Source: Acidimicrobiia bacterium (GTDB lineage Bacteria; Actinomycetota; Acidimicrobiia; Spongiisociales; Spongiisociaceae). From it: a stretch of DNA of 64,000 nucleotides. A program made the position numbers and the translations under genes. Positions within the stretch are counted from its first letter, which is position 1. Each line of letters begins with the position of its first letter. Below, piece by piece: positions 20,000 to 61,533 of the stretch. Location: positions 2,563,286 through 2,627,285 of the forward strand of contig OZ241390.1 in assembly GCA_965200835.1 (NCBI GenBank), in the 5' to 3' direction. The notes below the pieces were generated by a model. It searched no databases. It had not been told where the DNA came from and saw nothing but the letters and a program-made list of their open reading frames with translations.

Positions 20000-20818
20000 T
20001 CATAGTGACTCGGCCAGATAGTTAGCCAGCGCGTCGAGGTCCTGCTGCGACAGGTGAGCATAGGACGGATGGATACCGTCGGGGAAGATCTGTTCCGGGT
20101 TGATGAGGAATGCAACGAACTCGCCGTCGGTCACCGGATCGTCGGGGTCTCCATACGATGGGCGAGCGCCGATGTGGGCCAGGTCCGGGCCGATCCGCTG
20201 CACCCCGAAAGTTCCTGCGCCCAGGGCGTCCGAGAACGTCTCGGTGACCGGCCCCAGGCCGACATCGGCCAGCACCGGCCGCACCAGCTGGGTGTGGCAG
20301 TAGCCGCAGCCCTGGTTCAGATAGACGGCCCGGCCCGCCTCGCCCAGCTCGCTCAGCGAGGCGTCCGGAACGAGATGGCGGTAGTCGCCTCCGGTGTTGA
20401 ACGGTCCGATCAGCGCGATGATCAGGCCAAGCAGGAAGAAACCGGCCATCATCAGCCAGGTCCGTAACGGATGGAACCTGCGGCCCTCCAGGATGGGAGT
20501 TGCCTTGCTACGGGACGGGGTCACCACCACCGGTGGGCTGGCTGCAGGAGGAAGGGTGGCCACGGCCGTGGCGGCCGCGAGGGCCGGGGCGGTCACCCCG
20601 GGAACGGCCGGAGCCGGTCCCGGGTCCGCAACCTGGGAGGCCGGCTTCTCGACGGCCGCGGGAGCAGCTGCGGCGGGAGGGGGTGCCCCGCCGGTCCAAG
20701 CGCTCAGGATCGCTTCGTAGCTGGTGCCGTCGGCCTCCGCGCGGGCCTCAGCCGATCGCTCCACCAGATGCTCGGGCGCGCCGAGAGCGGCCGCGGCTGC
20801 GGCCAGAAGATCACTCAT
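20000..20818 (-). CDS. CcoO (FixO)-like monohaem cytochrome c subunit
   Basis: GRAVYLNQGCGYCHTQLVRP, QRIGPDLAHIGAR and NPEQIFPDGIHPSY are colinear with the CcoO signature. It carries an extra N-terminal module. Confidence 0.7.
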   Translation of the reverse strand: MSDLLAAAAAALGAPEHLVERSAEARAEADGTSYEAILSAWTGGAPPPAAAAPAAVEKPASQVADPGPAPAVPGVTAPALAAATAVATLPPAASPPVVVTPSRSKATPILEGRRFHPLRTWLMMAGFFLLGLIIALIGPFNTGGDYRHLVPDASLSELGEAGRAVYLNQGCGYCHTQLVRPVLADVGLGPVTETFSDALGAGTFGVQRIGPDLAHIGARPSYGDPDDPVTDGEFVAFLINPEQIFPDGIHPSYAHLSQQDLDALANYLAESL

Positions 20819-22268
20819 CCCCGGACTCCGATCGGTCGGTGCTGGACACCGGCAACAATATCTCCACCGCCCTGGCAGGGCCGGCCACGTAAGTTCCCAC
20901 CGCGGTCCAGGCCAGCAGGGCTATTCCGGTGGCAGCTACCACCGCGCCGAGTGCGGCGATCGTGAAAAGCACATCCACTCCGGCGAGGGTCTCGGAGAAG
21001 CCGGTCCCGGCATTGGCGCGGGCACCCGAGGCGCGAGCCCAGTTCCAGGTGAGGCCGGTCACCAGGCCGGTGATCGACAGAGCACCAGCCGCCGTGCCTC
21101 CGCCCCACAGGGTGAGACGAAGGCCCCGCTGGGCGGTGTCAGTTGCGGCGAGCTCGCGTCCCGTGGTGCGCGGGAAAGCGTAGAACACCAGACCGAGCCC
21201 GAGGATCGGGATCGCCACCAGCATCGAGCCGGTAGCCAGCCCGTCGTACCAGGTGGTGAGACCGACCACTGCCGCCACCGACCGGAAGCCGGAGGCGCCC
21301 ATCAGGAGGGTCACGAGGGCATAGGCGACCGTGCCGGCCAGGATCATCCTGGTTATCAGGCTCTCGCCGGTGGTCTCCCACTCACCCGATACGGTAAGCC
21401 AGATATTGGTCAGCACTGTCAGGGCCGATAGGGCCAGTCCCATGGAGGCCATGACCACCACGCTCTCCGTCCAGTCGGGTGCCGGGCCTCCCAGAAAGCG
21501 AGCCGGAGCAGCGAGCAGGCCAGCCCCGGCCAGGGTCCAGAACCCTGCCCTGGCCATCGGTCCGGAGAAGAGAGGCCGGCCACTCTCCTTCACCACCACG
21601 TAATAGGCGCCTGCGAGCGCGGCGGCCGGGAAGGCCAGCACCAGCATCCCGCCGGATACCAGGCTGGTCTGCAGGAACCCTCCGATGTTGGGCAGGCCAG
21701 GAAGGCTGCCGGTGATGTAGAGCGCCGGATACCACCAGACCCCCCCGATGACGTACAGGAGGGAGACATAGGTCCCCGCTTCGGTGCGCTCCCTGATCAT
21801 GGCGGTCACCAGCAAGGCCGGTACCACGGACGCAGCGGCCAACGGCCAGTCCAGCAGGGGGGGGAACTCGGCCAGTTCCGGTCCCGCCGGACCGCGGAAC
21901 AAAATAACGAGCACTCCGAGCAACACCAGCGCGCCGTATCCCGCCCCGGACAGCAGGGCGATGTGCTGGTGCCTGAGGGGAGCGCCCACCAGCCGGGGAG
22001 TCAGGTAGTAAGCGGCAGCCTGGGTAAGCGTTCCTCCGAATCCGTAAACCAGCAGGGACACGGCCGCCGGTCGCAGGCGCCCATAGGACAGGAAGGTGGT
22101 GTCGGCGAAAAGGGTGGGTACCGCGAGCTTGATCAGCATCACGGAGAACAGCACCGCGCCGATCATCAGGAGGAGGCAGGCGATCATCATGAGGCCGGCC
22201 ACCGCCGTCTCGCGGTGGTCTGCACCTATCCCGTTGCCGGATGTGCCGGCGGTCCGGTCCTCAGCCAA
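20811..22268 (-). CDS. CcoN-like haem-copper-oxidase subunit I homologue lacking the canonical His ligands
   Basis: About 12 TM helices. SYGRLRPAAVSLLVYGFGG, VWWYPALY, YYVVVKESGRPLF and PDWTESV are colinear with cbb3 CcoN. The protein has only 3 His in total. Its stop overlaps the CcoO-like start. Confidence 0.65.
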   Translation of the reverse strand: MAEDRTAGTSGNGIGADHRETAVAGLMMIACLLLMIGAVLFSVMLIKLAVPTLFADTTFLSYGRLRPAAVSLLVYGFGGTLTQAAAYYLTPRLVGAPLRHQHIALLSGAGYGALVLLGVLVILFRGPAGPELAEFPPLLDWPLAAASVVPALLVTAMIRERTEAGTYVSLLYVIGGVWWYPALYITGSLPGLPNIGGFLQTSLVSGGMLVLAFPAAALAGAYYVVVKESGRPLFSGPMARAGFWTLAGAGLLAAPARFLGGPAPDWTESVVVMASMGLALSALTVLTNIWLTVSGEWETTGESLITRMILAGTVAYALVTLLMGASGFRSVAAVVGLTTWYDGLATGSMLVAIPILGLGLVFYAFPRTTGRELAATDTAQRGLRLTLWGGGTAAGALSITGLVTGLTWNWARASGARANAGTGFSETLAGVDVLFTIAALGAVVAATGIALLAWTAVGTYVAGPARAVEILLPVSSTDRSESGDE

Positions 22269-35630: not shown

Positions 35631-37001
35631 TTGGATAGGAAGATTACTGACCCGCGCCTCTTCTCTCGCCGCCAGGTACTGGGCGGCGGCTCTGCTCTCA
35701 TGGCGTTCGCGGCTATGGGAGGTCTCACCGGACTCCTGGCGGCCTGCTCGGAGGGAGATCCGATCGATGAAGGATCCGAACCGGGCGAGGACTTCACCGG
35801 CACGCTGGGGGTGCTCATCGGCACCCATATGGATCCCATCAAGCAGCTGCTCGAACAGCATGAGGCGGCTGTCGGATTCGCTCCCAGTGTCGAGGAGGTA
35901 ACCACCCCCGATCTGCGCAGCAAGCTCACCACTTCGTTCCTGGCGCAGAGTTCGCCCTGGGATGCGGTATTCGTCACTGCGGAGCTGGGGGCCGAGCTCG
36001 GAACCCGCGGATGGCTCACCAACGCCAGCACCTTCATGGACGAGCGGGTACGCCCCGAAGGCGACCTGCTGACCAGGGGAATGGGTGCGGTGGAAGTCGG
36101 TGACAACACGCTGGCGGTCCCCTGGACCATGGGTAGCCAGCTCCTGCACTGGAACAAGCAGCTCATGGAGCAGGCCGGACTGGATCCCGATGCTCCCCTC
36201 GACTGGCATTCCACTCCCAACTCATGGGACACCTTCGTGGAGTACGCCAAGGCCATGACCGGGGAACGGGATGGTGTGCAGTACTACGGATACACCGACG
36301 CCTGGGCGGACAAGCACGTGCTGTGGACCTGGGGCGGCATGCTCAACATGCACGGCGGCAGCTTCCTCGACGAGGAGGGGCAGCCGTCCTGGAACTCGGA
36401 GGCTGGGGTGGAGGCCCTCCAGAAGCTCTATGACCTGCTGCACACCCACCAGGTGATCGACCCGGCGGTGAGCACCTACACCTGGGTGTTCGACGCCACC
36501 CCCGGTTTCTTCGAAGGCACCCGGGGCATGTTCATCTCCTGGCCGTTCGTGGCCGGGGTGGCAGCCATTCCCGAAGCGTCCCAGATCGCCGGGCACAGCG
36601 CCTTCGCGCCCAACCCGGCGGTGGTCACCAGCGGCTCGGTGGACGGGTCGGAGTTCTTCGGCGTCCCGGTGTACTCGGAGAACAAGGACGAGGCCTGGCG
36701 CCTGCTGGATCTGATCTCCTCCCGCGAGGGCCAGCGGGTGGTCGCCATGGGTGGTTGGGGCTCCATATACAACGGGGTGCTGCAGGAGCCCGACATCGTG
36801 GAGGCTTTCCCGTTCTATCCGGCGCTGGCCAAGGCCTACGAATACCCCGTGGACGGTGGCTGGTCCGAGGACCGGCCTCGCTGGACCCAGATGCTGGCCG
36901 ACGAGATCCATGAGGTGCTGGCCGACCGCAAGTCGCCCCGCCAGGCCCTGGACGACGCAGCCGCGGCCGCCGTGGAAGCCCGGAGGCAGGACGAGTCCTA
37001 G
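35631..37001 (+). CDS. ABC transporter substrate-binding lipoprotein, carbohydrate-type (family 1)
   Basis: TTG start. Tat-like SRRQVLGGG motif plus lipobox LLAAC. Confidence 0.75.
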   Translation: MDRKITDPRLFSRRQVLGGGSALMAFAAMGGLTGLLAACSEGDPIDEGSEPGEDFTGTLGVLIGTHMDPIKQLLEQHEAAVGFAPSVEEVTTPDLRSKLTTSFLAQSSPWDAVFVTAELGAELGTRGWLTNASTFMDERVRPEGDLLTRGMGAVEVGDNTLAVPWTMGSQLLHWNKQLMEQAGLDPDAPLDWHSTPNSWDTFVEYAKAMTGERDGVQYYGYTDAWADKHVLWTWGGMLNMHGGSFLDEEGQPSWNSEAGVEALQKLYDLLHTHQVIDPAVSTYTWVFDATPGFFEGTRGMFISWPFVAGVAAIPEASQIAGHSAFAPNPAVVTSGSVDGSEFFGVPVYSENKDEAWRLLDLISSREGQRVVAMGGWGSIYNGVLQEPDIVEAFPFYPALAKAYEYPVDGGWSEDRPRWTQMLADEIHEVLADRKSPRQALDDAAAAAVEARRQDES

Positions 37002-37020
37002 CAGGCACCCTCCCGACTCC

Positions 37021-37947
37021 ATGACCGGGGCCGTAGGGGAGGACGGGAGGACCGGGCGAGCGCGCAAGCGGGGTCGCCGGGTTGCCCTGACCCTGGTGGC
37101 CCCGGCCGTGTTGCTGGTGGCCGGAGTGTATGCCTATCCGGCCATCTCCACCGTCGTCTACAGCCTGGCTTCCATCGACCTGTCCCCCCGGTTCCGAATC
37201 TCGGGGTTCGTGGGGCTGCAGAACTTCGCCCGCCAGCTGGCCAGCCCGTCTTTCTGGGAAGCGACCGGGGTCACCGTCTACTTCGGAGCGATGCTGTGTG
37301 TGGTGACGGTGGTGCTTTCGTTCCTGATCGCGCTGCTGCTCAACCAGACCTTCCTCGGCAGGGGACTGGTCAGGGTTACCGTGCTGCTGCCCTGGGCGGT
37401 TCCCCCGGTGGCTTCCGGAGTGCTGTGGGTGCAGATGTTCCACGCCGAGTTCGGCTTTCTCAACGGCCTGATCAGAGCCTTCGGAGGCGAAGGCAATGTG
37501 ATCTGGTTGGGTGGGCAGGTGCTCGCTCTCCACTCGGTACTCATCGCCGAGGTGTGGCGCTGGATCCCCTTCGCCACCCTGTTCCTGCTGGCTGGGCTGC
37601 AGGTGGTTCCGAGGACGGTTATCGAAGCGGCGGCAATCGACGGGGCAGGTTCCTGGCGTACCTTCCGCCATGTCACCTTCCCTCTGATGCTGCCGGTGGT
37701 GGTCCCGGTGGTGATCTTCCTGTTCGTGTGGGCCATGAAAGTGTTCGACACCATCTTCGTGCTCACCCGGGGAGGACCCAGCCGAGCCACCACCACGCTC
37801 AACTTTCTGGTGTACCGGCAGGGATTCGAGCAGTTCGACTTCGGAAGCGCGGCGGCCACCGCCTACCTCCTATCAGCTCTAACCGTGCTGGCTATCGCCG
37901 GTCTCGGATGGATGCTGGTGCGGGCCCGCCGGCTCGCCCACGGATAG
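37021..37947 (+). CDS. ABC transporter permease (MalF/UgpA-like)
   Basis: ATG at 37021. Six TM helices. EAA-loop region IEAAAIDGAGSWRTFRHVTFPLM. Confidence 0.8.
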   Translation: MTGAVGEDGRTGRARKRGRRVALTLVAPAVLLVAGVYAYPAISTVVYSLASIDLSPRFRISGFVGLQNFARQLASPSFWEATGVTVYFGAMLCVVTVVLSFLIALLLNQTFLGRGLVRVTVLLPWAVPPVASGVLWVQMFHAEFGFLNGLIRAFGGEGNVIWLGGQVLALHSVLIAEVWRWIPFATLFLLAGLQVVPRTVIEAAAIDGAGSWRTFRHVTFPLMLPVVVPVVIFLFVWAMKVFDTIFVLTRGGPSRATTTLNFLVYRQGFEQFDFGSAAATAYLLSALTVLAIAGLGWMLVRARRLAHG

Positions 37948-37951
37948 CGGC

Positions 37952-38791
37952 ATGTACGGGAGGTTCCGATCCCGGTTCAGGCAGGTAGTCACCTATGGCC
38001 TGGCCGCACTGGTGCTCGTAGTCATGGCCTTTCCGCTGTATGGCATCTTCCTGACCAGCGTGCAGACGGAGCGGGACATCCGCTCCCGGGATGTGGCCTT
38101 CGCTCCCTCCTATATCACCACCGAGCACTACCGCCAGATCTTCTCGGCCGATTCCGGCGTTCCGGTGACCGAGTCGATGATCAACAGCCTGATAGTGGCG
38201 GTGGCCACGGCAGTGGTTACGATGGTGATCGCAGTACCGGCGGCATATGCGATCAACCGGTTGCAGGTCCCCGGTAAGCGGATCATTCTGGGAGGATTCG
38301 CGGCTATATATGTGCTGCCTACCCTGCTGTTCGTGCTCCCGCTGTTCATAACGGTGGTCCAGCTCGGTCTTTACGACACCTATGTAGGTCTGGTGCTTCC
38401 TTATGTCGCGTTCACCCTGCCGTTCATGGTGTGGATCATGGGGTCCTTCGTGCGTTCGATCCCGGTTTCGGTCGAGGAAATGGCCCGGATCGACGGGGCC
38501 AATCTTGCCCAACTCATCTTCCGGATAGTTCTACCGCTGCTGAGGCCGGGTATCTTCGCCGGGTTGCTGCTCGGTTTCGTCCTGGCCTGGATCGAGTTCC
38601 TGACCCCGCTGCTCTTCACCAGCGACCTGTCGATGCTCACCGTCACGCTCGGCCTGTTCCGCTCTACCATGGACATCGCCATCGGTCAGCTAGCGGCCGC
38701 CACGGTGGTGACCGCCCTGCCGGTTATTCTCATTACTGCCCTGTTCCAGAAGAACATCACTCAGGTGATCACCGCCGGAGTGGAGAGATGA
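37952..38791 (+). CDS. ABC transporter permease (MalG/UgpE-like)
   Basis: EEMARIDGANLAQLIFRIVLPLLRP EAA loop. Confidence 0.8.
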   Translation: MYGRFRSRFRQVVTYGLAALVLVVMAFPLYGIFLTSVQTERDIRSRDVAFAPSYITTEHYRQIFSADSGVPVTESMINSLIVAVATAVVTMVIAVPAAYAINRLQVPGKRIILGGFAAIYVLPTLLFVLPLFITVVQLGLYDTYVGLVLPYVAFTLPFMVWIMGSFVRSIPVSVEEMARIDGANLAQLIFRIVLPLLRPGIFAGLLLGFVLAWIEFLTPLLFTSDLSMLTVTLGLFRSTMDIAIGQLAAATVVTALPVILITALFQKNITQVITAGVER

Positions 38792-38836
38792 TGGGTCCGG
38801 TCTTGGCGGGTGAGACCTCCGGAAGGATGTGACGTT

Positions 38837-39604
38837 ATGGCAAATCGGATAGATGTGGTCATCCAGCCGGTGGTGCTGAGGTTCTCCCTATCGGACGATG
38901 AGGTGGTCTACTACTTCGCCTCGGACACCGAAGCGATGCTGGACCGGATGGAGACGATGATGGGGATCGATCCGGCTCGCCATGCCCTATTCGACTCCAA
39001 TCTAGGGTTCCTGCCGGTATCGACCACCGTCCTAATCAGGGGAGAGCGGAACGTGCTGGTGGATCCGGGCAGCCACCACACCGGATTCTACGGGCAGCTG
39101 GCCATCGGGCTGTCCCGCTTCTCGGTTACCCCCGCGGACATCGATGTGGTGGTATGTACTCATTGCCATCACGACCACATGGGCAGTGCTTTCCGGATCC
39201 CCGGAGCCGAGCTGGTCATGGGCCAGGGGGAGGCCGACTTCTGCGAGGAACTGTACGGGCCGGAGGAGACCGCTGCTCGTCTGGCGGTGATGGGGAAGCT
39301 TACCGAGGTGCCCCGGGGAGGGGAGCTCGAGCTGATGCCCGGCGTAGTGGCGATCTCGACACCGGGCCACACCCCCGGCCATATCAGCGTGCTGGCGGAG
39401 TCCGATTCGGGCGAGCGGGTGATCGTGGCGGGCGACACGGTGATGACCCGCCGGGAATACTCGGAGAGGACCTTCTCCCACTGGTACTCGCAGGACCAGC
39501 TGGACGGCCTCCACTCCAGCCTCGACCGCCTCCATGCCCTGGAGCCGACCACCGTACTACCAGGCCATGACCGGGCCTTTACCCCTCCGGGGGGGTTGGT
39601 ATGA
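38837..39604 (+). CDS. MBL-fold metallo-hydrolase
   Basis: HCHHDHMG (the HxHxDH motif) and TPGHTPGH. Confidence 0.8.
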   Translation: MANRIDVVIQPVVLRFSLSDDEVVYYFASDTEAMLDRMETMMGIDPARHALFDSNLGFLPVSTTVLIRGERNVLVDPGSHHTGFYGQLAIGLSRFSVTPADIDVVVCTHCHHDHMGSAFRIPGAELVMGQGEADFCEELYGPEETAARLAVMGKLTEVPRGGELELMPGVVAISTPGHTPGHISVLAESDSGERVIVAGDTVMTRREYSERTFSHWYSQDQLDGLHSSLDRLHALEPTTVLPGHDRAFTPPGGLV

Positions 39605-50989: not shown

Positions 50990-51005
50990 AGATCTAGGGG
51001 AAGCT

Positions 51006-53966
51006 GTGAGCCGCTTCAAACCTGGTGATCGAGTGCGGCGGATAGCTGGGGGCGACGACGGCATCATCATAGGTTCCCAACCAGGCCTCGGATACCCGGT
51101 GTTCTTTTCCTCCGGGTCCCAGTTTCTAAGCGAGTCCGCAGTTCGACTCCTACCACCCGAACCGGATGATGCGCTCCGCCAGGGGAAACTCAGCACGGCG
51201 GAACTCTATGGGCTTCGTATGCAGGCCCTGTATCTCCAGCATGCGTATCGCTATGACACCCTTGCCGGGCTCTCCAATGCTCGTATCGAGCCGACTCTTC
51301 ACCAAGTGATGACCGCCCTGCGTGTACTGTCCAAGAACCAGCCCCGTATGATTCTGGCTGATGAGGTCGGCTTGGGAAAGACTATCGAGTCCGGGCTTAT
51401 CCTGAAGGAGTTACGGGCTCGCCGGGTAGTCGATAGAGCCCTGATAGTCGTTCCTGCTTCCCTCCAATGGCAATGGAAGCAGGAGCTCCGTTCCAAGTTC
51501 AACGAGCACTTCGAGGTACTCGATGGGGACCGCCTGAAGTAGCTTGCCAAAGGAGGCAGCAACCCCTGGTCCCGCTACAGCAGCGTCATCTGCTCTCTCA
51601 ACCTCGCTCGTGTCGAGCGCCATGCTGAACAGATCGTCGAAGCCGGATGGGACCTGGTGGTATTCGATGAGGCTCACCGTGTTCGACGTACCAAGGCATC
51701 CACCACCTTGGGTTACCGGCTGGCTAACCGGCTCAAGGACCAGGTCGATGGGATGCTGCTGCTCACGGCTACCCCCATGCAGTTACATCCATACGAGCTG
51801 TACTCACTGATCGAGCTGGTCGAACCTGGAGTCTGCGGTTCTTTCGCCGAATACGAACGGAGACGCCGCGAGCTGCCTGATCTCGTCCAGAAGGCGAAAG
51901 ACTTGGAACAGTGGGACTTGCTGACCTCCAAGCAACGCGATTCCCTGAGTCACTCCTTCCGCAGACGTGATGTAGATCTGAAGACCAAGAGTGGCCGTGC
52001 GGCTGCCCTGGCCATTCTCGAACGGCGACATCCGTTCGCCCTCACGATGATCAGGAACCGCAAGGCCGACATCGGGGGTTTCACCCAACGGCGCCCGGTG
52101 ACCGTTTCGGTCCAGCTGGAGCCGGATGAGATCCAGCTATATAAGGACGTGAGTCGTTACCTCCGTGAACAATACAATCATGCCCAAGAAACTCAGCAGA
52201 AGGCCGTCGGGTTCTTGATGGTGACCTATCAGAAGATGTTGGCGTCGAGCTCTCATGCCGTTAGGACTGCTCTGCAAAGGCGGATGGCGAAGCTGACCGG
52301 CAGGACGGAACCATCGGAAGACGATGCCACGTCGCCCGCTGTGCAGGGCCCCTGGCGCGATCCGCGAGAACTCAGCAAGGCCATCGAAGGAAGTGACCAC
52401 GTTCCTGTGGCCTCCTATCCACGTCCTCTCGATCACGAGTTGAGTAGGTTGGCCAACCTGGTCGCACGGTTGGGTCGAGTACGTGATTCCAAGGCCAGGT
52501 ATCTACTCGATACGCTCCGAGATTCGATAGGTGATAAGAAGGTCATCATCTTCACCCAGTTCATCGAAACCCAGATGTTCTTGAAGAATACGCTTGAGTA
52601 CCATGGCTACTCTGTAGAGATCTTCAATGGCACGATGAAACACCAGGGCAAGGACAGCGCAGTCAGACGGTTTAGGACCATGTCGGACATCCTGATATCG
52701 ACGGAGGCAGGAGGGGAAGGACGCAATTTTCAGTTCGCCAACGTGATGATCAACTACGACCTTCCCTGGAATCCGATGAAGGTCGAGCAGCGGATCGGTC
52801 GATTGGATCGGATCGGACAGCAACAAGATGTGTACATCTACAACTTCTTCTGTACTGGAACGATTGAAGAGCGGATTATCGATGTGCTCGACAGGCGGAT
52901 CCAGCTTTTCGAGGAATCAGTAGGCTCCCTCGATCCAATTCTCGGCGCCATCGAAGAGGAGGTTACCAGCCTCATATTCGGATCAGGTCACTCGACTGAT
53001 GAGATTGAGAAGGATATCGAACAGCGTGTAAAGAGCGCCCGGCTGCTCGAAGCCAAGACTAAACAACTGACGTTAGATCTCACTATCTTCCAACCAAATG
53101 AGGCTAATAGGGTAGTGGCAGAACGATCAAAGACTGGCCCGTCGAATCTACAGAGGTATGTAGCGGAGGTGTTGGAGTCCTATGGCGGTCGGCTAACGGA
53201 GCATCCAGAAGGTGGGTTCGCTATCCTTCTCTCCCAGGACTTGCAGAGCCTGTTGGGTGCTGAGGCAGGATCCTGTCGTGGTGTCTTCGACTATAGGGAA
53301 GCACTGGAATATGAGGAGCTGGACTTCTTCGCCTTTGGCCATGACTTGATCGATGGGATAGTGGAACTACCACTGAAACAGGATGCTCCATCTGCCTGCC
53401 ATCGGAGGATCAGAGGTCATCGAGGGGGACCGGTCGTTGAGTTGTTCTACATGATCGAGGCCAAAGGTCCCATCCGGCTCGGCAGGTTCATCCAGCATCT
53501 AGTCGATAAACGTGGGACAGTGAGAGAGAAGCTGGTGTCCTCGATGCCCGAGCTCGGTCCAGAGGTCGTGGAATCGAAGATGGACTCTGACTGGATCGAT
53601 GAAGCATTGGCGATCAGCCGGCGCAAGCTCTCATCGACGCGTAACGTGTTGGAGGCGGAGGCAAGGAAGCTCCACCTCAAGTGGAGTGATGAGGAGCTTG
53701 ATCGAACTGAACGTATCTATAGGTACCGAAGGCGTTATCTTGAGCGGCGTATTGAAGCTGATGAGCAGCTGGTACAGAAGTTGGAAACTTCGGATGCCCC
53801 TGGAGACCTGAGGGTGCTGCCAGCGATACGTGGGCGTGTGGCAAAGAACACTGGACGTCTGTCTACCCTCGACAGAGGCCATGAGATGGCAAAGGAAGTA
53901 ATAAGGGGGCGAAGATCTGACATATCTGTCAGGATGGTGGCGGCCGCATTGGTGGTGGGCAATTGA
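51006..53966 (+). CDS. RapA/HepA-like SWI2/SNF2 ATPase, single reading frame interrupted by one in-frame TAG (51540-51542)
   Basis: GTG start. N-terminal SH3/Tudor-like FKPGDRV. LADEVGLGKT, VVFDEAH, LLLTATPMQ and QRIGRLDRIGQ motifs. Track ORFs 51006..51542 and 51657..53966 are in the same frame. Confidence 0.8.
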
Positions 53967-55258
53967 GGGCGGATGTTGCCTATGGAATCGACTATGGAAC
54001 TACCAACAGTTCTATCTCCTTAGCATATCGCGATCATGTGGAAGTACTATCGACCGGCGGTTATCGGACTTCGTCGGCAGCCTTCCCCTCATTGGTCTAC
54101 CTTCACAGGAACGGGCTGAGGCTAGCTGGTCGCCAGGCGGCAGAGAGTTTCTCTATCACCGGCAATCAACAGACCCGATGTAACAGCTGTGAGCTAGTAG
54201 TTGGCTGTGAGCAGTTCAGCCGGGGAGGAGGCTGTCTCGACTCCCGGTTGATGGGTGAGATCAAGAGCACGCTCACAGATAGAGAGTTCCAGCATACCCA
54301 CTCATGGGGGACCGACTTTCAACTGGAGGATCTGGTTGCAGTCATCATGTCCTACCTCAAACGGCTCGCCGATCGCCGGACCGGCCAGCATGTAACCCGG
54401 GCGGTCATCGGTTACCCGATTGCCTTCTTCGGGGCAACCGGCGAAGGGTCCCGAGCGAAGCAGTTGGTGGCCGAGGAGCGGGTCGAGGAGGCAGCCCGGA
54501 GGTCAGGATTCACAGAAGTAGAACTCTATCCGGAGCCTGCTGCCGTAGTACTGGATGAGGTGCTGGACGATGCGTATGTGGTGGCGGTTGACTTCGGTGG
54601 TGGAACATTCGATGTGGCTGTCACCTCGGTGTTCGGAGGAGAGGGGGAAGTATTGAGCCTGGCGGGAGCGGCTGTAGGGGGCGCCATTCTCGACCGGTTG
54701 ATCTTCGAGGAGAAAGTAGCGGAGTGCCTCGGATTGAATGAGCCCTTCGTTCCGGCTTGGTTCCGCAGTGGTTTGGCGAGTCTGGAGAGTTTCAAGTATA
54801 TAATGAACCACCGATATTCGTTTAGTATTCTCGACCTTAGTAAATGACTGCCAGCTCAGAGTGCTTTGCTACAGTCGATAATCACGGGTGGCCAAGCCTA
54901 TCGATTCTACAAAGCGATCGAGGACGCCAAGATCAGGTTGTCGACGGCTGAGCGAACCTCGATCGAGTTCCATCCCCCTCAGGGTGACCTATCGATAGAT
55001 CTGAGTCGAGCTGAGCTGGATCGGATGGTGGCGCCTCAGCTCGAGGTGGTCGAGCAGCAGATAGTGAAGGCGCTGGATGAGGCCGGTGTCATGCCTGAAG
55101 AGGTCACTGTCGTCTTGCGTACCGGTGGGTCGTCGCAACTCAGTGCTTTCGGCACGATGCTGGATCGGATGTTCGGGGTCGAAAAGGTACGGAAGCGGCC
55201 CCCTTTCACAACCGTCGCCTATGGTTTAGGGGTAGTGGCACAGAAGACCTGGTTATGA
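53963..55258 (+). CDS. Hsp70/actin-fold ATPase with nucleotide-binding domain only, interrupted by one in-frame TGA (54845-54847)
   Basis: AYGIDYGTTNS, VAVDFGGGTFDV and VLRTGGSSQL motifs. Cys-rich insert RCNSCELVVGCEQFSRGGGC. Track ORFs 53963..54847 and 54866..55258 share one frame. The start overlaps the SNF2 stop (TTGA). Confidence 0.75.
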
Positions 55259-56082
55259 CCGAGGACGATCCGAACCGAGAGCGGGACCGGCATTATGTCC
55301 CAACCCCTGAGGAGCTGGAAGCAGGTCTGGGGTCGGGACGTGGCAAGCGGCGACGTGGCGGGTCCAAGCGGGGCTTGGGTAGAAAGCAGACGCGGGCAAG
55401 ACGAGCTCGGGGACTGTTCCGACTACTTCGAGGGGTTGGCCGGAAGAGAACCGAGGCAGTCGCCCCTAGTCCGACTCAGCCCCGTCCCAGGTCGTCGCCC
55501 TCTGTCCCGCCCGAGGATCGGCTCGATGATCCTGGGAAGGGTCCTCCGCCGCCGACTGCGCCGGTAAGGAAGCAGGTACCTCCCTCCGAGGTTCCCCGAG
55601 CGAGATCGAAGCGTGTGGTGAAGGGAGTCGATGGTGGTGGACCGCCTTCGACCACCACCTCCCGGCAGCGTGTTCGCCAGGTCCATAGTCCCGAGCCTAA
55701 GCCTCCTTCGGTAGGGACACCAGCAAGGCGGGCCGGCGAGCCTGCTGATCGTGGCGGGCGGTCCTTATCCGCTGCCTCCGGGCAGCGTGTAAGGCGAGTC
55801 CGCCTTCCCGAACGCAAACCTCCGCCAGTAAAGAAACCTCATGGACCCGTTCCAAAGGACAAACTGAAGAAGCTCGCCGAACTCGGACATAGCGTCGGTC
55901 AGTTCGAAGAGATACGCACACATACGCTTCAGGAGAATCGGTATCAAGCCAAGTGTCGAGTCTGCGGTTTGAAGGCGATCGCTCGGCATGCCGCCCCCGA
56001 TGGATGGGCCCTTCAAGATGCGGGTAACTGGGATCTCCAAGGTAAGGCTTCCGAGACCTCATGCTCAACCGATGGTCGTTGA
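55255..56082 (+). CDS. Highly basic, Pro-rich hypothetical protein with internal repeat and C-terminal CxxC module
   Basis: ATGA overlap with the Hsp70-like gene. 275 aa rich in R, K and P. QRVRxV..PE.KPP.V motif occurs twice. C-terminal KCRVCG. Confidence 0.55.
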   Translation: MTEDDPNRERDRHYVPTPEELEAGLGSGRGKRRRGGSKRGLGRKQTRARRARGLFRLLRGVGRKRTEAVAPSPTQPRPRSSPSVPPEDRLDDPGKGPPPPTAPVRKQVPPSEVPRARSKRVVKGVDGGGPPSTTTSRQRVRQVHSPEPKPPSVGTPARRAGEPADRGGRSLSAASGQRVRRVRLPERKPPPVKKPHGPVPKDKLKKLAELGHSVGQFEEIRTHTLQENRYQAKCRVCGLKAIARHAAPDGWALQDAGNWDLQGKASETSCSTDGR

Positions 56083-56132
56083 GGACCACCGGGATCGATC
56101 ACCTCTCAGGTCCGATCTCCCAAGGGCACTAG

Positions 56133-56189
56133 CACTCCGGGGTTGAGGACTCCTTTGGGGGTCGAGATGGGCCTTGGCTCTGGCGAGGA
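56133..56189. repeat. Copy A of a ~57-bp direct repeat (degenerate duplicate of the 3' end of the FAD-linked oxidase gene)
   Basis: CACTCCGGGGTTGAGGACTCCTTTGGGGGTCGAGATGGGCCTTGGCTCTGGCGAGGA differs from 59950-60005 by 2 substitutions and 1 extra G. Confidence 0.85.
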
Positions 56190-56192
56190 GTG

Positions 56193-56850
56193 ACTCGCGA
56201 GGTGACCAGATCAGGTGCTACCACCACTTCTGGGTTTCTGGTGATAGCGACCTCTCTGGGGTGGCAACACCCTGGATGCCGGTTTGGCGCATGAGGCGGG
56301 CTACCTGTTTGCGACCCATACATGTACCGTTGAAGCCAGTTCCGCATGAACATGGGGAGCACCATAAGTACCGCTCGACATACGATGAATGTCGACGAGG
56401 AGACACCCATGCACCACCCCGGAACCTCGGCCTCGTTTGCCTTCACGAACCCACGCCGCCTGGGTGTCGATCGAGTCTCCGCACGCGAACCCGGCCGCCG
56501 CCTCAGCCCAGAATCTCTTTCTCCTCCCGAATCCGGCACTCCTCCCTAGGCGTAGCTCCTGACGCTCAGACGTAGTCAGCCCCTCCACCGTCCGGCATTC
56601 ACATCAGCTTGGTTCGCTCAACTTGCGGACGGTCTCATCCGACGGCTTGAACTCCCGGCTCAACTCGCCCGTACTACGACCCCTACGACCCGTCCGCACC
56701 AGACGACCGTCGCAGCCCGGAACTCGTACACGGTACGGCCTGTCGATCTCGACACACTTCTGACACTCCTCTGTAGGAACAATGGTCCCAAGCCTTAGAA
56801 GTGTCCACCAAACCGGGTCAACCTCAGAGAAACCCTCCGTTAACACTCGA
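56193..56850 (-). mobile_element. IS3-family transposase remnant (multiply frameshifted, integrase core missing)
   Basis: Fragments spread over three frames: ELSREFKPSDETVRK (HTH), GLTTSERQELR (zipper), SGTYGAPHVHAEL, GRKQVARLMRQTGIQG and APDLVTSR. No rve domain follows. Confidence 0.6.
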
Positions 56851-56859
56851 TCCCAAAGG

Positions 56860-59708
56860 TCAGCTTACCTTAGTTCCAGCCACACTTGAGTCTAAGGGCG
56901 TGCGTACTATATCGTCGGGTGAGAGGGCCCAGCAGGTGATAGCGTTATCCAGGTTGACGGCACAACGCGTGTATAAGAAGAATTGTTTGTATTCCCCCTC
57001 AGGAGGACGACTCGAGCCCAGGGCGGCCCTTCCACAGTCAATAGTATTGTCTAGGCGGATAGCACACATCGATGATACATCTAACGTTTTGTACTTACCA
57101 TCAAAATATTCGCTATAACTTTGAGCGGTCGGATCTTAACAAGTGATGGTGTCATCTCGGCCGATAGCACATGGAGCAATCCAACCTCCAATCATTACTT
57201 GTTAATACTCGCCTTCAGGAGTGAACGTTCCACCGAAGAGGCCTTTACCAAAGCTGTCTTTGCCCCAGCATCTGATATTGTCATTCAGACTGATGGCACA
57301 CCCATAGTCACTTCCCAAAACAATTTGTTTGTATCTGCCTTCAGGAGCATCAGCCGCTATGCGACTATTCAAGGTACCCCAGCAGTTGATGGTGTCGTCG
57401 AGACTGATGGCACACCAATCATCGCCGCCCCAATTAAAGACTACTTGTTTATATCTACCATCAGGAGCATCTGACGGACGGTAAGTGTGATGGCCCCAGC
57501 AGGTAATAGTGTCGTCTAGACCAAGAGCACACGCAATACCAGGATCAGCTACAAATAGTTCTTTGAATTTGCCACCTGGACTATCAGTTATAAGCGGAGT
57601 GTCATCGTGACCCCAGCAAGTGATAGTATCATCCAGACCGATAGCACACCCTAAGCGACTGAGGTGGGGTGTTAGACCTATTTGTTTGTATTCACCTTCA
57701 GGAGTGTTGGACAGACCACTGAATTCGGCGGCGTTACCCCAACAAGTAATTGTGTTGTCTAGACTGATTGCACAGGCTGAGGAGTCACCTCCCATCACAA
57801 TCTGTTTGTATTCGCCTTCAGGAGCACCCGTTACAAGGCGAAGCCCCAACAGATAATGTTGTTATCCAGGTCAATCGCACAAGCACTACGGTGAGTACCT
57901 AAGACCACGTGCTTATATTTGCCGTCAGGAGTGCCCCAGCACGTGATAGTACGTTTACCCGGACCTACAGCACATGAGTCAGTCCATTCACTTGAAACGG
58001 TGTACTTAACCTCTCGGTCAGGACCATCACTCTCACCGTGGTAGTCGGTACCCACACAGGCCACGTTACCGTCTAGAGTGAGAGCACACATATAGCCAGT
58101 ACGTATACCATCCTCGCCCATAGTCACTTGTTTGTACTTGCCATCAAAGAACCTACTATCTCCGGGCCAGCAGGTGACAGAGTCGTCAACACCAAGAGCG
58201 CACCCCCAATGGTGTGCCAATTCGATATGTTTGTACTTCCCTTCAGGTGTGTCCTTGACTCGATTACGGTCGTTCTGACCCCAGCAGGTGATGGTATCGT
58301 CAACAGCGATAGCACACGACCAAGAACCACCGCTGGCGATGAACTTATACCTGCCATCGGGACTATCAGTCTGCGTGCCAGCGTTGCTGGTACCCCAGCA
58401 GGTAATGTTTCCAGCTAGGCCAAGTGCACAGAAGTAGTCTAGCCACGAATTTCCTCCGTAGATTAGTTGTTTATATTTGCCTTCAGGGGCATTAGCTACC
58501 ATAGGACTATTCCAGGCGCTGGCCCAGCAGGTGATGGTGTCGTCCAAGCGGATACGACAGTCGGGAGAACCTAATACGACCTGTTTGAACTTACCTTCAG
58601 GCGCATATTCTATGGCTTTTAAGTGGTTCCAGCAATCAATAGTGTCGTCCAGGCTTATAGCACACCACTTATAATGGGTGGGGCTCGCGATCAATTGTTT
58701 ATATTTGCCCTCAGGGATTTGATCTAGACGGGACCAGGAGCCCCAGCAGTCAATAGTATCATCAATGGCAAGTGCACAAGCATTAAGCGGGCCTAAGGCG
58801 ATCTGGGTATATTTTCCTTCAGGAGCCTCCGTCTGACCCTGGTCATTTTTGCCCCAGCAGGCGATGGTCTGATCAGAACGGATGGCGCATGAATAATTGT
58901 CGTAGCTGCTGGCGATGTGGGTGTAGGTAACGGTGGGACTGTCTGAGGGTACGGTGGCAGCGGTCGGTTCGGAAATGGGCTCCAGTTCAAGGGCACGGGC
59001 CAGGAATGTGGCCATCTGAGCTCGGGTTACGCGCTGCTGCGGACAGAATCTGGGCGGATCAAGCTGGCATCCAGCAGTGATATCGGAGGCAGCCAGGGTG
59101 TTGATACTGTCGGTGTGCGTATCGTCATCGTTGATGTCAACGAAGTCCCGTACCCCATCGGTGGATGGCTCGAGTTGGAAACTACGGACGAGAAAGCTGG
59201 CCATCTGAGCTCGGCTGACGGGACGGTCTGGACAGTAACGAAGCGGTCCTGTGGCACAGCCCGACATTACCCCGATCTCAGCGAGACGTACCACATAGGG
59301 TGCCCACCACTCGCCGTCATCGACATCGGCGAACGGATTGACAGCTTGCGACGGTTCCTCATCCAACGAACGAATGACCCACACTGCCATCGTGGAACGC
59401 AGGATCGGCTCATCGGGGCAGAACAAGTTCTCACCACACTCACTACCCGTAACTATCCCTTAAGCGGTAAGAGCATTGATCCACGGTGCTAACGTCCCTC
59501 CACTCACGTCGCCGAAGCCGACCACACTCCCATCCGCAGGCTCGATGCCCTCGCCTGCGACCGGACCCGGCGGCAGCAGGCCCACCACAATAACCACAGT
59601 CACCCACAGCAACCACAGCCGCCGAACAACCGGTAGGAAACCCCAACGCACAACTAACCTCCCAACCCGTTGCCGATCCAGAACACCATCAAGCCTAAAA
59701 CAACTCAA
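56860..59708 (-). pseudogene. Secreted SLH-domain / RCC1-like beta-propeller repeat protein, decayed (three in-frame TAA, one frameshift)
   Basis: Signal peptide and SLH repeats (FGDVSGG..., FADVDDGEWWAPYV, FVDINDD...TRAQMATFLARAL). About 16 repeats of CA..LDDTI.CWG....PEGKYKQ. Stops at 59460, 57202 and 57136. Frame change at 57844-57847. Confidence 0.7.
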
Positions 59709-59922
59709 CCCCCGCCAGAATCCCGACCTAGGTAGACCAAGGAGCTATCCCGGGTGAGCACTCCTTCAAACCACCTTCCGTCTTCAAACTTCACTAACCA
59801 CTAAACCGAACCCCGTGGTGTGTAGACCAAACCGACTGGAACCTTACTCCAATAAGCCGCCGGATCTGGAGGCCTCATACTTGGTCGCCGACCGGTGAGA
59901 CAATTCTAAAAGTGGCTACCTT

Positions 59923-61533
59923 TCAGCTCGGTTGTGGCATAGGTACTATCACACCGGGGTTGAGGACTCCTTTGGGGTCGAGATGGGCCTTGGCTCTGGT
60001 GAGGATGTCGCCGAAGAGTGGAGGGCGCTGCTGGTGGTACCAGGCTTGGTGATCGCGGCCGATGGCGTGGTGGTGGGTGATGGTGCCTTCGTTGTCCAGC
60101 ACGGCATCCGATACGGCGCGCTTGATCTCCCGCCACTGCTCCAGCATCGATCCGGGCCGGGCAGCACGGTGGAAGGCGAAGTAAGGAGCGGGGCCGTCCG
60201 GGTAAGTGTGGCTGAACCGGCATGACACGGCCCCTTCCTGCCCGGTGACCGTCCGGATGGCCTCCTGGGTGGCACTCGTTACCGCGTGATAGAACGACTC
60301 GAACCGGTCCCAGGTGATGGCCGACTCGAAGGTATCGGAGATGATGCCGAGCGGGGTGAGGATCTCCCGGTTGTAGGGCATCCTGATGAATGCCTCCCGC
60401 CACGCACCGACCGTTCCCAGCAGGTGAGCACCTGAGCCCGTATGCCCCTCCAGGTCGGGTGTTCCGCCATGATCGAGCACACACTGTTCGGCCAGGTCCA
60501 TCCAGGCATCGACCGGACGATCTGCCGACTCGAAGGACACCACCATTAGCGAGAACGTACCGTCTCCCGCACCGTTGACTTGCAGCTCCACTCCGTCGAC
60601 GATTCGCACGTTGGCCGGGAACAGACCAGCCTGGGAGATAGCCCTCACTGCCCGGGCAGCCTGCAGGAAGTCCGGGAACCGGAAGCCAGAGGTGGCCTTG
60701 AAACGGACCCGGCCCTGGACCCGCACCCAGGCTTCGGTGATGACGCCCAGCGAACCCTCCGAGCCGATAACCAAGCGGTCCGGGCTGGGACCGGCGCCCG
60801 ACGCGGGAAGGCGCCGGGACTCCATCCGACCGGCCGGGGTGACCAGGGTGACGCTCTCGACCAGGTCGTCTATGTGGGTGTAGAGGGTGGCGAAGTGGCC
60901 CCCGGATCGGGTGGCGATCCAACCGCCCAGCGTCGAGTGCTGGAAGGATTGGGGAAAATGCCGCAGTGTCACACCGTGAGGCTTCAGGGCCGCTTCGAGT
61001 TCCGGCCCGCGGGCTCCGCCCTGGATCCGGGCCACCGTCGAGATGGGATCGACTTCTAGGACCCGGTTCATTCTGGTGGTGTCGAGGGTTACCGTTCCGG
61101 CGTACCCGTCACCGATATCGGGGGTGACGCCTCCCACGACCGACGAACCACCACCATAGGGGATGAGGGCCGCACCCTGTTCACCCGCCCATTCCATCAA
61201 CGCCACCAGGTCGGACTCGTCGCGCGGATAGGCAACGACATCGGGAGCGTGGTCGAAGTCGTTGGCGAAGATCCGGATCGAATCGGGCTGGGATTGGCCA
61301 AAGCTATGCAGGACCCGCTCGTACGGATCCTGGGTGCAGATCGCCGTGACGCCTTCGGGCGGACTCAGGCGAGGTTTCGGAAGCGAGACCCGGTCGACAG
61401 TAGGTGTCCACGCCTCTCCGGAGCCGCGTATACCGAAGTCTTCGGCCAGGGTACGGAGCAACGTTTCCCTGTCACAGGACGCCAAACCATCGCCCTCGTA
61501 TCCCCATCCCCAGAACTTGAGCCGTTTTCCCAA
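59923..61533 (-). CDS. FAD-linked oxidase (alkyl-DHAP synthase / GlcD-like family)
   Basis: MGKRLKFWGWGYEG N-terminus, PCMH-type FAD domain (IPYGGGSSVVGG), and C-terminal HHHAIGRDH. Confidence 0.8.
   Translation of the reverse strand: MGKRLKFWGWGYEGDGLASCDRETLLRTLAEDFGIRGSGEAWTPTVDRVSLPKPRLSPPEGVTAICTQDPYERVLHSFGQSQPDSIRIFANDFDHAPDVVAYPRDESDLVALMEWAGEQGAALIPYGGGSSVVGGVTPDIGDGYAGTVTLDTTRMNRVLEVDPISTVARIQGGARGPELEAALKPHGVTLRHFPQSFQHSTLGGWIATRSGGHFATLYTHIDDLVESVTLVTPAGRMESRRLPASGAGPSPDRLVIGSEGSLGVITEAWVRVQGRVRFKATSGFRFPDFLQAARAVRAISQAGLFPANVRIVDGVELQVNGAGDGTFSLMVVSFESADRPVDAWMDLAEQCVLDHGGTPDLEGHTGSGAHLLGTVGAWREAFIRMPYNREILTPLGIISDTFESAITWDRFESFYHAVTSATQEAIRTVTGQEGAVSCRFSHTYPDGPAPYFAFHRAARPGSMLEQWREIKRAVSDAVLDNEGTITHHHAIGRDHQAWYHQQRPPLFGDILTRAKAHLDPKGVLNPGVIVPMPQPS
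59950..60005. repeat. Copy B of the ~57-bp direct repeat (inside the intact 3' end of the FAD-linked oxidase gene)
   Basis: Encodes ...ILTRAKAHLDPKGVLNPGV on the minus strand. It matches 56133-56189. Confidence 0.85.

Follow-up and report, generated by a model that had tools for sequence, protein, structure and literature searches.

In the genome of an Acidimicrobiia bacterium (GenBank assembly GCA_965200835.1, contig OZ241390.1), a stretch of 64,000 nucleotides (nt), corresponding to positions 2,563,286 to 2,627,285 of the forward strand and hereafter referred to as the window, harbours an operon of three overlapping genes that encode an SNF2 ATPase, an Hsp70 nucleotide-binding domain and a basic, mostly disordered protein. 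These genes are a real, widely conserved module, found in more than 35 genomic and metagenomic loci, in which the motor is of a known kind, that of the BrxHII/RapA-type defence SNF2 helicases, and the set of partners is new. The reading adopted here, in which we place an even degree of confidence, is that of a translationally coupled three-protein module from the accessory conflict gene pool of Actinomycetota and other mostly uncultured bacteria, which would act most likely against phages or mobile DNA, by itself or in concert with effectors encoded nearby. In the window, the operon appears to be a recent pseudogene copy, unless two single bases of the assembly consensus are in error. The genes and their junctions are the following:

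51006 to 53966, + strand: gene 1, 987 codons (about 986 amino acids), RapA/BrxHII-type SNF2 ATPase, a pseudogene in the window (from the table of open reading frames, ORFs, the translations and profile searches)
53963 to 55258, + strand: gene 2, 432 codons (431 amino acids), Hsp70 nucleotide-binding domain only, a pseudogene in the window
55255 to 56082, + strand: gene 3, 275 amino acids, basic, Pro/Arg-rich, mostly disordered and adaptor-like
53963 to 53966, + strand: TTGA overlap, with the TTG start of gene 2 lying in the TGA stop of gene 1 (translational coupling)
55255 to 55258, + strand: ATGA overlap, with the ATG start of gene 3 lying in the TGA stop of gene 2

An initial annotation of this DNA had described three genes with 4-nt overlaps, and the same layout, with the genes co-directional, was seen in the ORF list and in the translations. 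It is not confined to the window. Ten contexts were inspected, nine retrieved by protein and one from a genome scan, and in all of them the SNF2 gene lay upstream of the Hsp70 homologue, with a 4-nt overlap of start and stop in nine. The TTGA-type overlap between the SNF2 and Hsp70 genes was also observed in loci L001–L003 and L084–L089, and in most loci of the family gene 3 starts in overlap with the Hsp70 stop or right next to it. By using a hand-made degenerate DNA pattern for the region of the cysteine insert of gene 2, a scan of metagenomes returned 45 loci, 31 of which encode family members, the other 14 being chance matches. Among the 29 metagenome loci with upstream sequence, the SNF2 gene stands directly before the Hsp70 gene in 28; the sole exception, L123, has a 5'-truncated Hsp70 gene. 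Since homology E-values go down to 1e-190 and the arrangement recurs, chance is excluded as its origin, and the co-occurrence of the three families elsewhere, which had been named initially as a test of the proposal, was found.

Members of the family are common in uncultured Actinomycetota as well as in metagenomes from soil, freshwater and sponges, and none was retrieved from 72,556 plasmids, 50,697 phage records and 2.9 million viral contigs (IMG/VR). A genome scan with the full Hsp70 alignment was swamped by generic Hsp70 motifs; it returned only L004 and L005 as family members and provides no fair phyletic census.

Gene 1 matches the Pfam families SNF2-rel_dom (1.2e-25), Helicase_C (4.3e-22) and RapA_C (1.9e-10), the last with 40.7 bits against a cut-off of 26.8, and thereby combines an SNF2 core with RapA_C as RapA does. 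Its closest solved structure is that of E. coli RapA (PDB 6BOG, E=5e-64), with a colinear alignment that runs from RapA residue 106, equivalent to gene 1 residue 48, to about residue 837. This agrees with the colinearity reported in the initial annotation, including the quoted RapA stretch that ends in WDLLVVDEAH. The Tudor-like N-terminus and the full set of SNF2 motifs described there were likewise recovered by the alignments, with one Tudor-like domain: by sequence alignment, not structure, the 47-residue N-terminus aligns to the second RapA Tudor repeat only, and the tandem N-terminal Tudor pair of RapA is missing.

By the NCBI criterion gene 1 is no RapA orthologue, because it scores 352.2 bits against the cut-off of 576 for the RapA equivalog (NCBIfam NF003426); it also falls below the cut-off of the DISARM DrmD equivalog (NF038317), with 311.4 against 610 bits. 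In PADLOC, the BrxHI/BrxHII model scored 370.7 bits (5.5e-111) and the BrxHII model 251.2 bits, and the DrmD models gave 258 bits. The BrxHII domain plan, formed by a single Tudor-like domain, a Swi2/Snf2 core and RapA-like C-terminal domains, is present in full. As judged from these profiles and alignments, gene 1 is a RapA-like SNF2 ATPase of BrxHII architecture. The possibility, raised initially, that it was simply the housekeeping RapA did not hold, given the sub-threshold score, the one Tudor-like domain and its lack in close relatives at this position.

For gene 2, the Pfam HSP70 match covers profile positions 2–235 of 599. An AlphaFold2 model of an intact orthologue, P0009, which is 59% identical to gene 2, reached a pLDDT (predicted local distance difference test) of 90.4, and its top PDB matches in Foldseek were Hsp70/DnaK nucleotide-binding domains only. 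No substrate-binding domain was found by Pfam, in the model or by Foldseek, and the protein stops where the nucleotide-binding domain ends, as the initial annotation had it. In NCBIfam, gene 2 scored 104 bits against the DnaK cut-off of 822; its best match was PRK11678, with 119.1 bits against a cut-off of 331 over residues 121–430, a model that we take to be of the YegD type and that NCBIfam labels only as 'molecular chaperone'. Of a canonical Hsp70, gene 2 thus retains the nucleotide-binding domain with its catalytic residues; the substrate-binding domain and the J-domain and GrpE partners are missing from the operon proteins, in which Pfam finds no DnaJ or GrpE domain, again as stated initially. 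Residues D10, K101 and E191, the DFGGGTFD motif (210–217) and the TGG motif (387–389) are invariant in the family alignment, and with its catalytic residues invariant the gene 2 family is predicted to be an active ATPase. The domain is further distinguished by an insert:

54179 to 54235, + strand: four-cysteine insert (C73, C76, C82 and C91) in the Hsp70 domain, a probable zinc-binding module

The four cysteines, pointed out in the initial annotation, are invariant in alignments of 34 and of 50 family members, and the insert probably binds zinc; in the P0009 model it is less confident than the rest, with pLDDT values of 56–65. In the public gene calls of L088 (8767–10092) and L089 (8893–10218), the Hsp70 gene begins too late, at an internal ATG, giving the proteins P0023 and P0019. 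That these were truncated Hsp70s or pseudogenes was considered and rejected, as the gene callers had missed TTG/GTG starts that overlap the SNF2 stop.

Gene 3 has an isoelectric point of 11.3, with 15% Arg and 13% Pro, and is mostly disordered by AlphaFold2 prediction (pLDDT 51.8, with one usable homologue). It is without match in Pfam, NCBIfam and PADLOC, and 29 relatives were retrieved among 1.84 billion representative proteins. The initial description of a basic, Pro-rich and disordered protein was correct; the C-terminal CxxC module described with it is there too but is confined to some lineages. Two parts of the protein can be delimited:

55294 to 55320, + strand: N-terminal motif YVPTPEELE, gene 3 residues 14–22, the part conserved family-wide
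55855 to 56079, + strand: C-terminal small domain of gene 3, GH...F...CxxC...W...G...C, probably zinc-binding, in some lineages

The motif is acidic and reads Φ-P-T/S-x-x-E-Φ-E, in which Φ is hydrophobic, and is followed by a basic, LxRLFR-like stretch. The regular expression [IVL]P[TS]xxE[LFI][ED] matched 27 of the 39 scorable loci, and near variants were seen by eye in about six further loci (L098, L100/L104/L106/L114 and L119); in each such locus the ORF with the motif overlaps the Hsp70 stop or adjoins it. Across loci, the Pro-rich linker varies. The C-terminal small domain, which is shared with P0249, was modelled by AlphaFold2 as a helix and four strands with pLDDT values of 56–69; it contains His and Cys residues and probably binds zinc. 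Gene 3 proteins of the types seen in L085 and L087 lack it, and the L085/L124 clade has a short gene 3 of 134 amino acids without the Cys domain. A likeness between Y-V-P-T-P of gene 3 and the D-V-T-P-L that follows the interdomain linker of DnaK was judged too weak and was not used.

In other loci, the module is found beside genes of known or candidate defence systems, and the features concerned are these:

L117, 66 to 9355, and L115, 245 to 8677: complete Azaca system (ZacA, ZacB, ZacC) directly upstream of the SNF2–Hsp70 genes, on the same strand
L085, 2705 to 13262, and L124, 483 to 7499: module with a full-length PDC-S68 candidate defence helicase (E=0) directly after gene 3
L087: MmeI-type methyltransferase, OLD-family nuclease, GmrSD and Schlafen/AlbA (SLFN-type) genes
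L005, 1 to 7602 (metagenome-assembled genome of Nocardioides sp.): module with McrB-like and McrC-like genes and an ISL3 transposase after it
L100: GmrSD-like HEC-06 protein and T5orf172 protein
L114: DarT
L125: fusion of a BrxL-ATPase with PLD
L124: TrwC relaxase about 7 kb away

In the two Azaca loci, L117 and L115, ZacA scored 409 bits, ZacB 539 and 497 bits, and ZacC 1130 and 1075 bits, respectively. Some of these neighbours are joined to the module by overlapping reading frames: the stop of ZacC and the SNF2 start share 4 nt in L117, the end of gene 3 runs into the start of PDC-S68 in L124, and the gene for a UvrD/GajB-like helicase in L085 extends from upstream into the start of the SNF2 gene. 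The Hsp70 protein of L005 is a distant variant of 412 amino acids, 37% identical and without the four-Cys insert.

The host of the window is an acidimicrobial actinobacterium with the sponge symbiont Candidatus Spongiisocius as a near relation. Its operon behaves as accessory DNA and is part of the following region:

51006 to 59917, no strand assigned: low-GC accessory region with 54–57% GC, against about 65% in the flanks, between a Bmp-type ATP-binding cassette (ABC) transporter operon and a gene for a flavin adenine dinucleotide (FAD) oxidase

In 9 of 11 loci the GC content of the operon was 44–57%, against 62–69% in the flanks. The ABC-transporter operon and the FAD-oxidase gene that border the operon in the window also border it in L001 and L088. 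In L136 a methyltransferase stands in place of the operon between these two neighbours; in L135 this ABC-transporter operon is followed by different genes, a PIN/VapB pair among them, and in L137 by unrelated ones. In each of these three loci the varying stretch lies downstream of the ABC transporter at about 10.5–12.5 kb. Because related Acidimicrobiia carry different cargo there, the locus is a variable hotspot. Past the FAD oxidase of L136, a PIN/FitA pair and an N6_N4 methyltransferase were also observed.

Three independent syntenic pairs allowed the operon proteins to be compared with the flanking proteins, and the identities were 58–62% against 79–85%, 79–84% against 91–95%, and 49% against 70–89%, so that the operon proteins are 2–3 times more diverged. 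Gene 3 is the most diverged of the operon, with 36–54% identity. As the identity of the operon tracks that of its flanks, long residence with accelerated evolution is indicated, not repeated replacement; the operon thus appears to have long occupied a variable hotspot of this lineage and not to have been inserted recently. It lies 8–22 GC points under the host genome in 9 of 11 genomes, though its identity tracks the flanking genes. Around the operon of the window there is no integrase, tRNA gene or terminal repeat, and tRNA and Rfam scans there gave nothing useful. The initial annotation had placed the genes in a foreign island beside an insertion sequence (IS) remnant: the accessory, low-GC character stands, the recent insertion does not, and the IS remnant is accounted for by a separate 3.8-kb insertion that lies outside the module.

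Each of the first two genes carries an in-frame stop codon in the window, as had been noted initially:

51540 to 51542, + strand: in-frame TAG at gene 1 codon 179, between SNF2 motifs I and II
54845 to 54847, + strand: in-frame TGA at gene 2 codon 295, in a variable alignment column

The TAG column is occupied by Ser in four close orthologues, by Phe, Ser or Arg in the seven remaining ones and by Glu in RapA; a single TCG-to-TAG change would explain the origin of the stop in gene 1. Past the stops, both reading frames are unbroken and can be aligned to the orthologues over their full length. TAG terminates the upstream ABC-transporter gene and TGA terminates genes 1 and 2, and both are taken as ordinary stops here because neighbouring genes end with them. 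At the TGA column of the gene 2 alignment, Cys was not found in any homologue, and 3' of this TGA there is no fold like a selenocysteine insertion sequence (SECIS), the RNA there folding no better than shuffled sequence (z=-0.15). Recoding of the stops was therefore rejected. As a separate observation, GrdA (glycine reductase selenoprotein A) is split into ORFs of 42 and 102 amino acids in L001 (18403–18855) and L088 (17262–17714); a split GrdA is the usual TGA-selenocysteine signature, and the lineage probably uses selenocysteine.

Apart from the two nonsense codons, the catalytic motifs are all intact in the window copy. In the window, 16 nt (50990–51005) separate the ABC-transporter stop from the start of gene 1, the corresponding gap being 246 nt in L001 (6772–7016) and 126 nt in L088 (5658–5782). 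The short gap could reflect the loss of the operon's own promoter region, and a promoter scan of the window copy gave no promoter-like site. On the window's branch, the ratio of operon to flank divergence is no higher than that between L001 and L088, which indicates that the inactivation is recent. The practical message for this genome is that its operon copy is to be regarded as dead.

The conflict or defence context proposed initially is supported by the neighbours of the module in other loci. A function against mobile elements we infer from the domains, the accessory behaviour and these defence contexts. RapA/BrxHII-type SNF2 motors are core parts of BREX and DISARM, and in the present module the SNF2 protein would be a motor that translocates on double-stranded DNA, while its single Tudor-like and RapA-like C-terminal domains would engage the target, possibly RNA polymerase or some nucleoprotein complex of foreign origin. 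The Hsp70 domain, which has all the ATPase residues and a four-Cys insert but lacks a substrate-binding domain, could be the subunit that acts as an ATP-driven switch or sensor. An adaptor role would fall to gene 3, of which the acidic N-terminal peptide and the adjacent basic helix would dock to one of the ATPases and the long basic disordered tail, together with the Cys/His domain in this lineage, would bind nucleic acid. Because the core module has no nuclease, the output is more readily conceived as remodelling or eviction, for example by blocking the transcription or replication of an invader, or as the activation of adjacent effectors.

Several points weigh against a defence function. 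Neither a nuclease nor another recognisable effector was found in the core module, RapA itself is a transcription factor, and the neighbours in the lineage of the window are metabolic genes. The tracking of flank identity by the operon is what would be expected for vertical inheritance. The defence association comes from a qualitative survey of about 20 distinct neighbourhoods without a statistical background model, and the docking assigned to gene 3 is pure conjecture.

A bolder form of the defence reading can be put forward tentatively. Here the module would be a stand-alone, unrecognised anti-phage or anti-plasmid family, made of a BrxHII/RapA-type Snf2 remodeller, an Hsp70-fold regulatory subunit and a fast-evolving disordered adaptor as its target-recognition or tethering arm. 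Such a system would be a bacterial parallel, by convergence, to eukaryotic chromatin remodellers, in which Snf2 motors are coupled to actin or actin-related proteins (Arps), and would evict or stall polymerases on foreign DNA without a nuclease.

It seems rather unlikely that the operon is a housekeeping-like transcription remodeller, that is, a paralogue of RapA that would serve in the recycling or rescue of RNA polymerase, aided by an Hsp70-like cofactor and a basic nucleic-acid-binding partner, and would not be an immune system. The closeness of gene 1 to the RapA structure, its colinearity and RapA_C domain would suit such a role, as would the retention of the operon between metabolic genes with an identity that follows the flanks, the lack of an effector nuclease and the role of RapA in transcription. 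However, gene 1, with 352 bits, stays short of the 576 bits required of a RapA equivalog, close relatives lack the operon at the same locus, and in the window it has been inactivated without a visible replacement there. The strongly atypical GC content, a divergence 2–3 times that of the flanks and the repeated coupling of the module to defence genes elsewhere also speak for the accessory conflict module.

An auxiliary role is unlikely. The module would in this case be a sensor or loader for varied neighbouring effectors (Azaca, PDC-S68, McrBC), orphaned or decaying where it has none, as in the window. The overlaps of ZacC with SNF2 in L117, of PDC-S68 with gene 3 in L124 and of UvrD with SNF2 in L085 are consistent with it, as are the effector-less core and the pseudogene state of the window copy. 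Yet most loci have only the three genes among unrelated neighbours, as in the window's lineage, L002, L003, L084, L086 and L089, with copies that are intact; moreover, the partner systems vary by locus, and clustering in defence islands fits equally well.

A cargo of mobile elements that serves the element itself, through maintenance, anti-defence or transfer, is very improbable: low GC, the hotspot location, the TrwC relaxase in L124 at about 7 kb, the ISL3 transposase near the L005 module and toxin-antitoxin pairs nearby in L084, L135 and L136 would agree with it, but the plasmid, phage and viral-contig collections hold no member, no integrase, tRNA gene or terminal repeats surround the window operon, and diverged relatives keep it at the same chromosomal position.

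The 3.8-kb insertion mentioned above has low GC and extends over 56101–59917, separating gene 3 from the FAD-oxidase gene. At its borders stand direct repeats of about 90 nt (56101–56189 and 59918–60005), which are 80–94% identical and are copies of the 3' end of the FAD-oxidase gene. The insertion is missing from the syntenic loci L001 and L088. Within it, a weak IS3-type HTH_21 match was found at 56129–56846 on the − strand (E=1.7e-4, under the cut-off), with no intact transposase. An SLH protein with many RCC1-like repeats is split there into overlapping ORFs on the − strand (57831–59426 and 57202–57849); its gene (57202–59426, − strand) has about 15 DNA copies of a unit of about 114–129 nt, and may be another disrupted gene. 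Elsewhere in the window, strong AT-skew excursions of +0.17 and −0.22 were recorded at 20001–22000 and 37001–39000, respectively, and the GC content dips to 0.61 at 15–18 kb.

If active, the accessory conflict module would offer a three-protein system for studying how SNF2 motors are targeted and switched, and Hsp70-fold ATPases would join the dedicated immune regulators. Current defence finders miss the family for want of models for genes 2 and 3: neither gave a PADLOC match at E<=0.01 (PADLOC-DB v2.0.0), and no single system of this database fits all the components. The initial annotation had not recognised the gene combination from any known system, and a module of SNF2 and Hsp70 is indeed without description in PADLOC or in the searchable literature.

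Among known systems, BREX is the one that provides the top PADLOC models for gene 1. A comparative study (PMC12839542, 2026) describes BrxHII of type 3 BREX as "paralleling RapA", with the Swi2/Snf2 core and two RapA-like C-terminal domains, but with one Tudor domain only. This protein, which occurs in type 3 and in some type 5 BREX, shares its domain plan with gene 1. The BREX core genes, however, are absent: no BrxC, PglZ, PglX/PglXI, BrxA or BrxF stands beside gene 1 in the window or in about 25 related neighbourhoods, and that work (PMC12839542) mentions neither of the partners found here, the Hsp70 nucleotide-binding domain and the basic disordered protein.

RapA/HepA, which recycles RNA polymerase in E. 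coli, resembles gene 1 in its colinearity, its RapA_C domain and the complete SNF2 motifs. In contrast to RapA with its tandem Tudor pair, gene 1 has one such domain and is accessory, low in GC, fast-evolving and set in an operon with two further genes. DrmD of DISARM, ZorD, DpdE and ietH are, like gene 1, SNF2-family motors of anti-phage systems; the DrmA, DrmB and DrmC genes of DISARM were not found in any locus examined, its methyltransferase genes are missing here, and gene 1 has different partners and no Mrr or PLD fusion. As for Azaca, the ZacABC genes (with ZacA being DUF6361) are present in L115 and L117, yet not in the window or in most other loci, and no Zac model is among the best 25 of the 47 PADLOC matches of gene 1; the module is therefore a neighbour of Azaca and not a member.

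Hsp70-like proteins have also been described in predicted conflict systems, both of the McrBC type, as CnuD of CoCoNuT and Hsp70-McrB fusions (PMC11090510), and of the GTPase/tubulin type (PMC7159879). The likeness of the present module to CoCoNuT lies in the presence of an Hsp70-fold ATPase in a predicted conflict system, and its L005 variant is directly upstream of McrB and McrC. CoCoNuT Hsp70s, however, have both nucleotide- and substrate-binding domains, HEAT repeats and degenerate Walker A-like motifs (PMC11090510). Gene 2 has only the nucleotide-binding domain, with invariant catalytic residues, a four-Cys insert and an SNF2 partner instead of McrB; it thus differs from CnuD, which is encoded with an NxD-type McrB GTPase, in having neither substrate-binding domain nor HEAT repeats, and the window has no McrB. 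YegD-like loci (L006–L083) differ in turn by being without the four-Cys insert and the obligate SNF2 neighbour of the gene 2 family.

In the eukaryotic remodellers SWI/SNF, RSC and INO80, a Snf2 motor is stably partnered with an actin/Arp module. Hsp70 nucleotide-binding domains and Arps are different families of one superfamily, and an HSA-like helix was not found in the present module, no search having been aimed at it. By analogy only, with no homology of the pairing implied, these eukaryotic complexes and the present module share one design, in which a Snf2 motor is combined with an ATPase of the actin/Hsp70/sugar-kinase fold.

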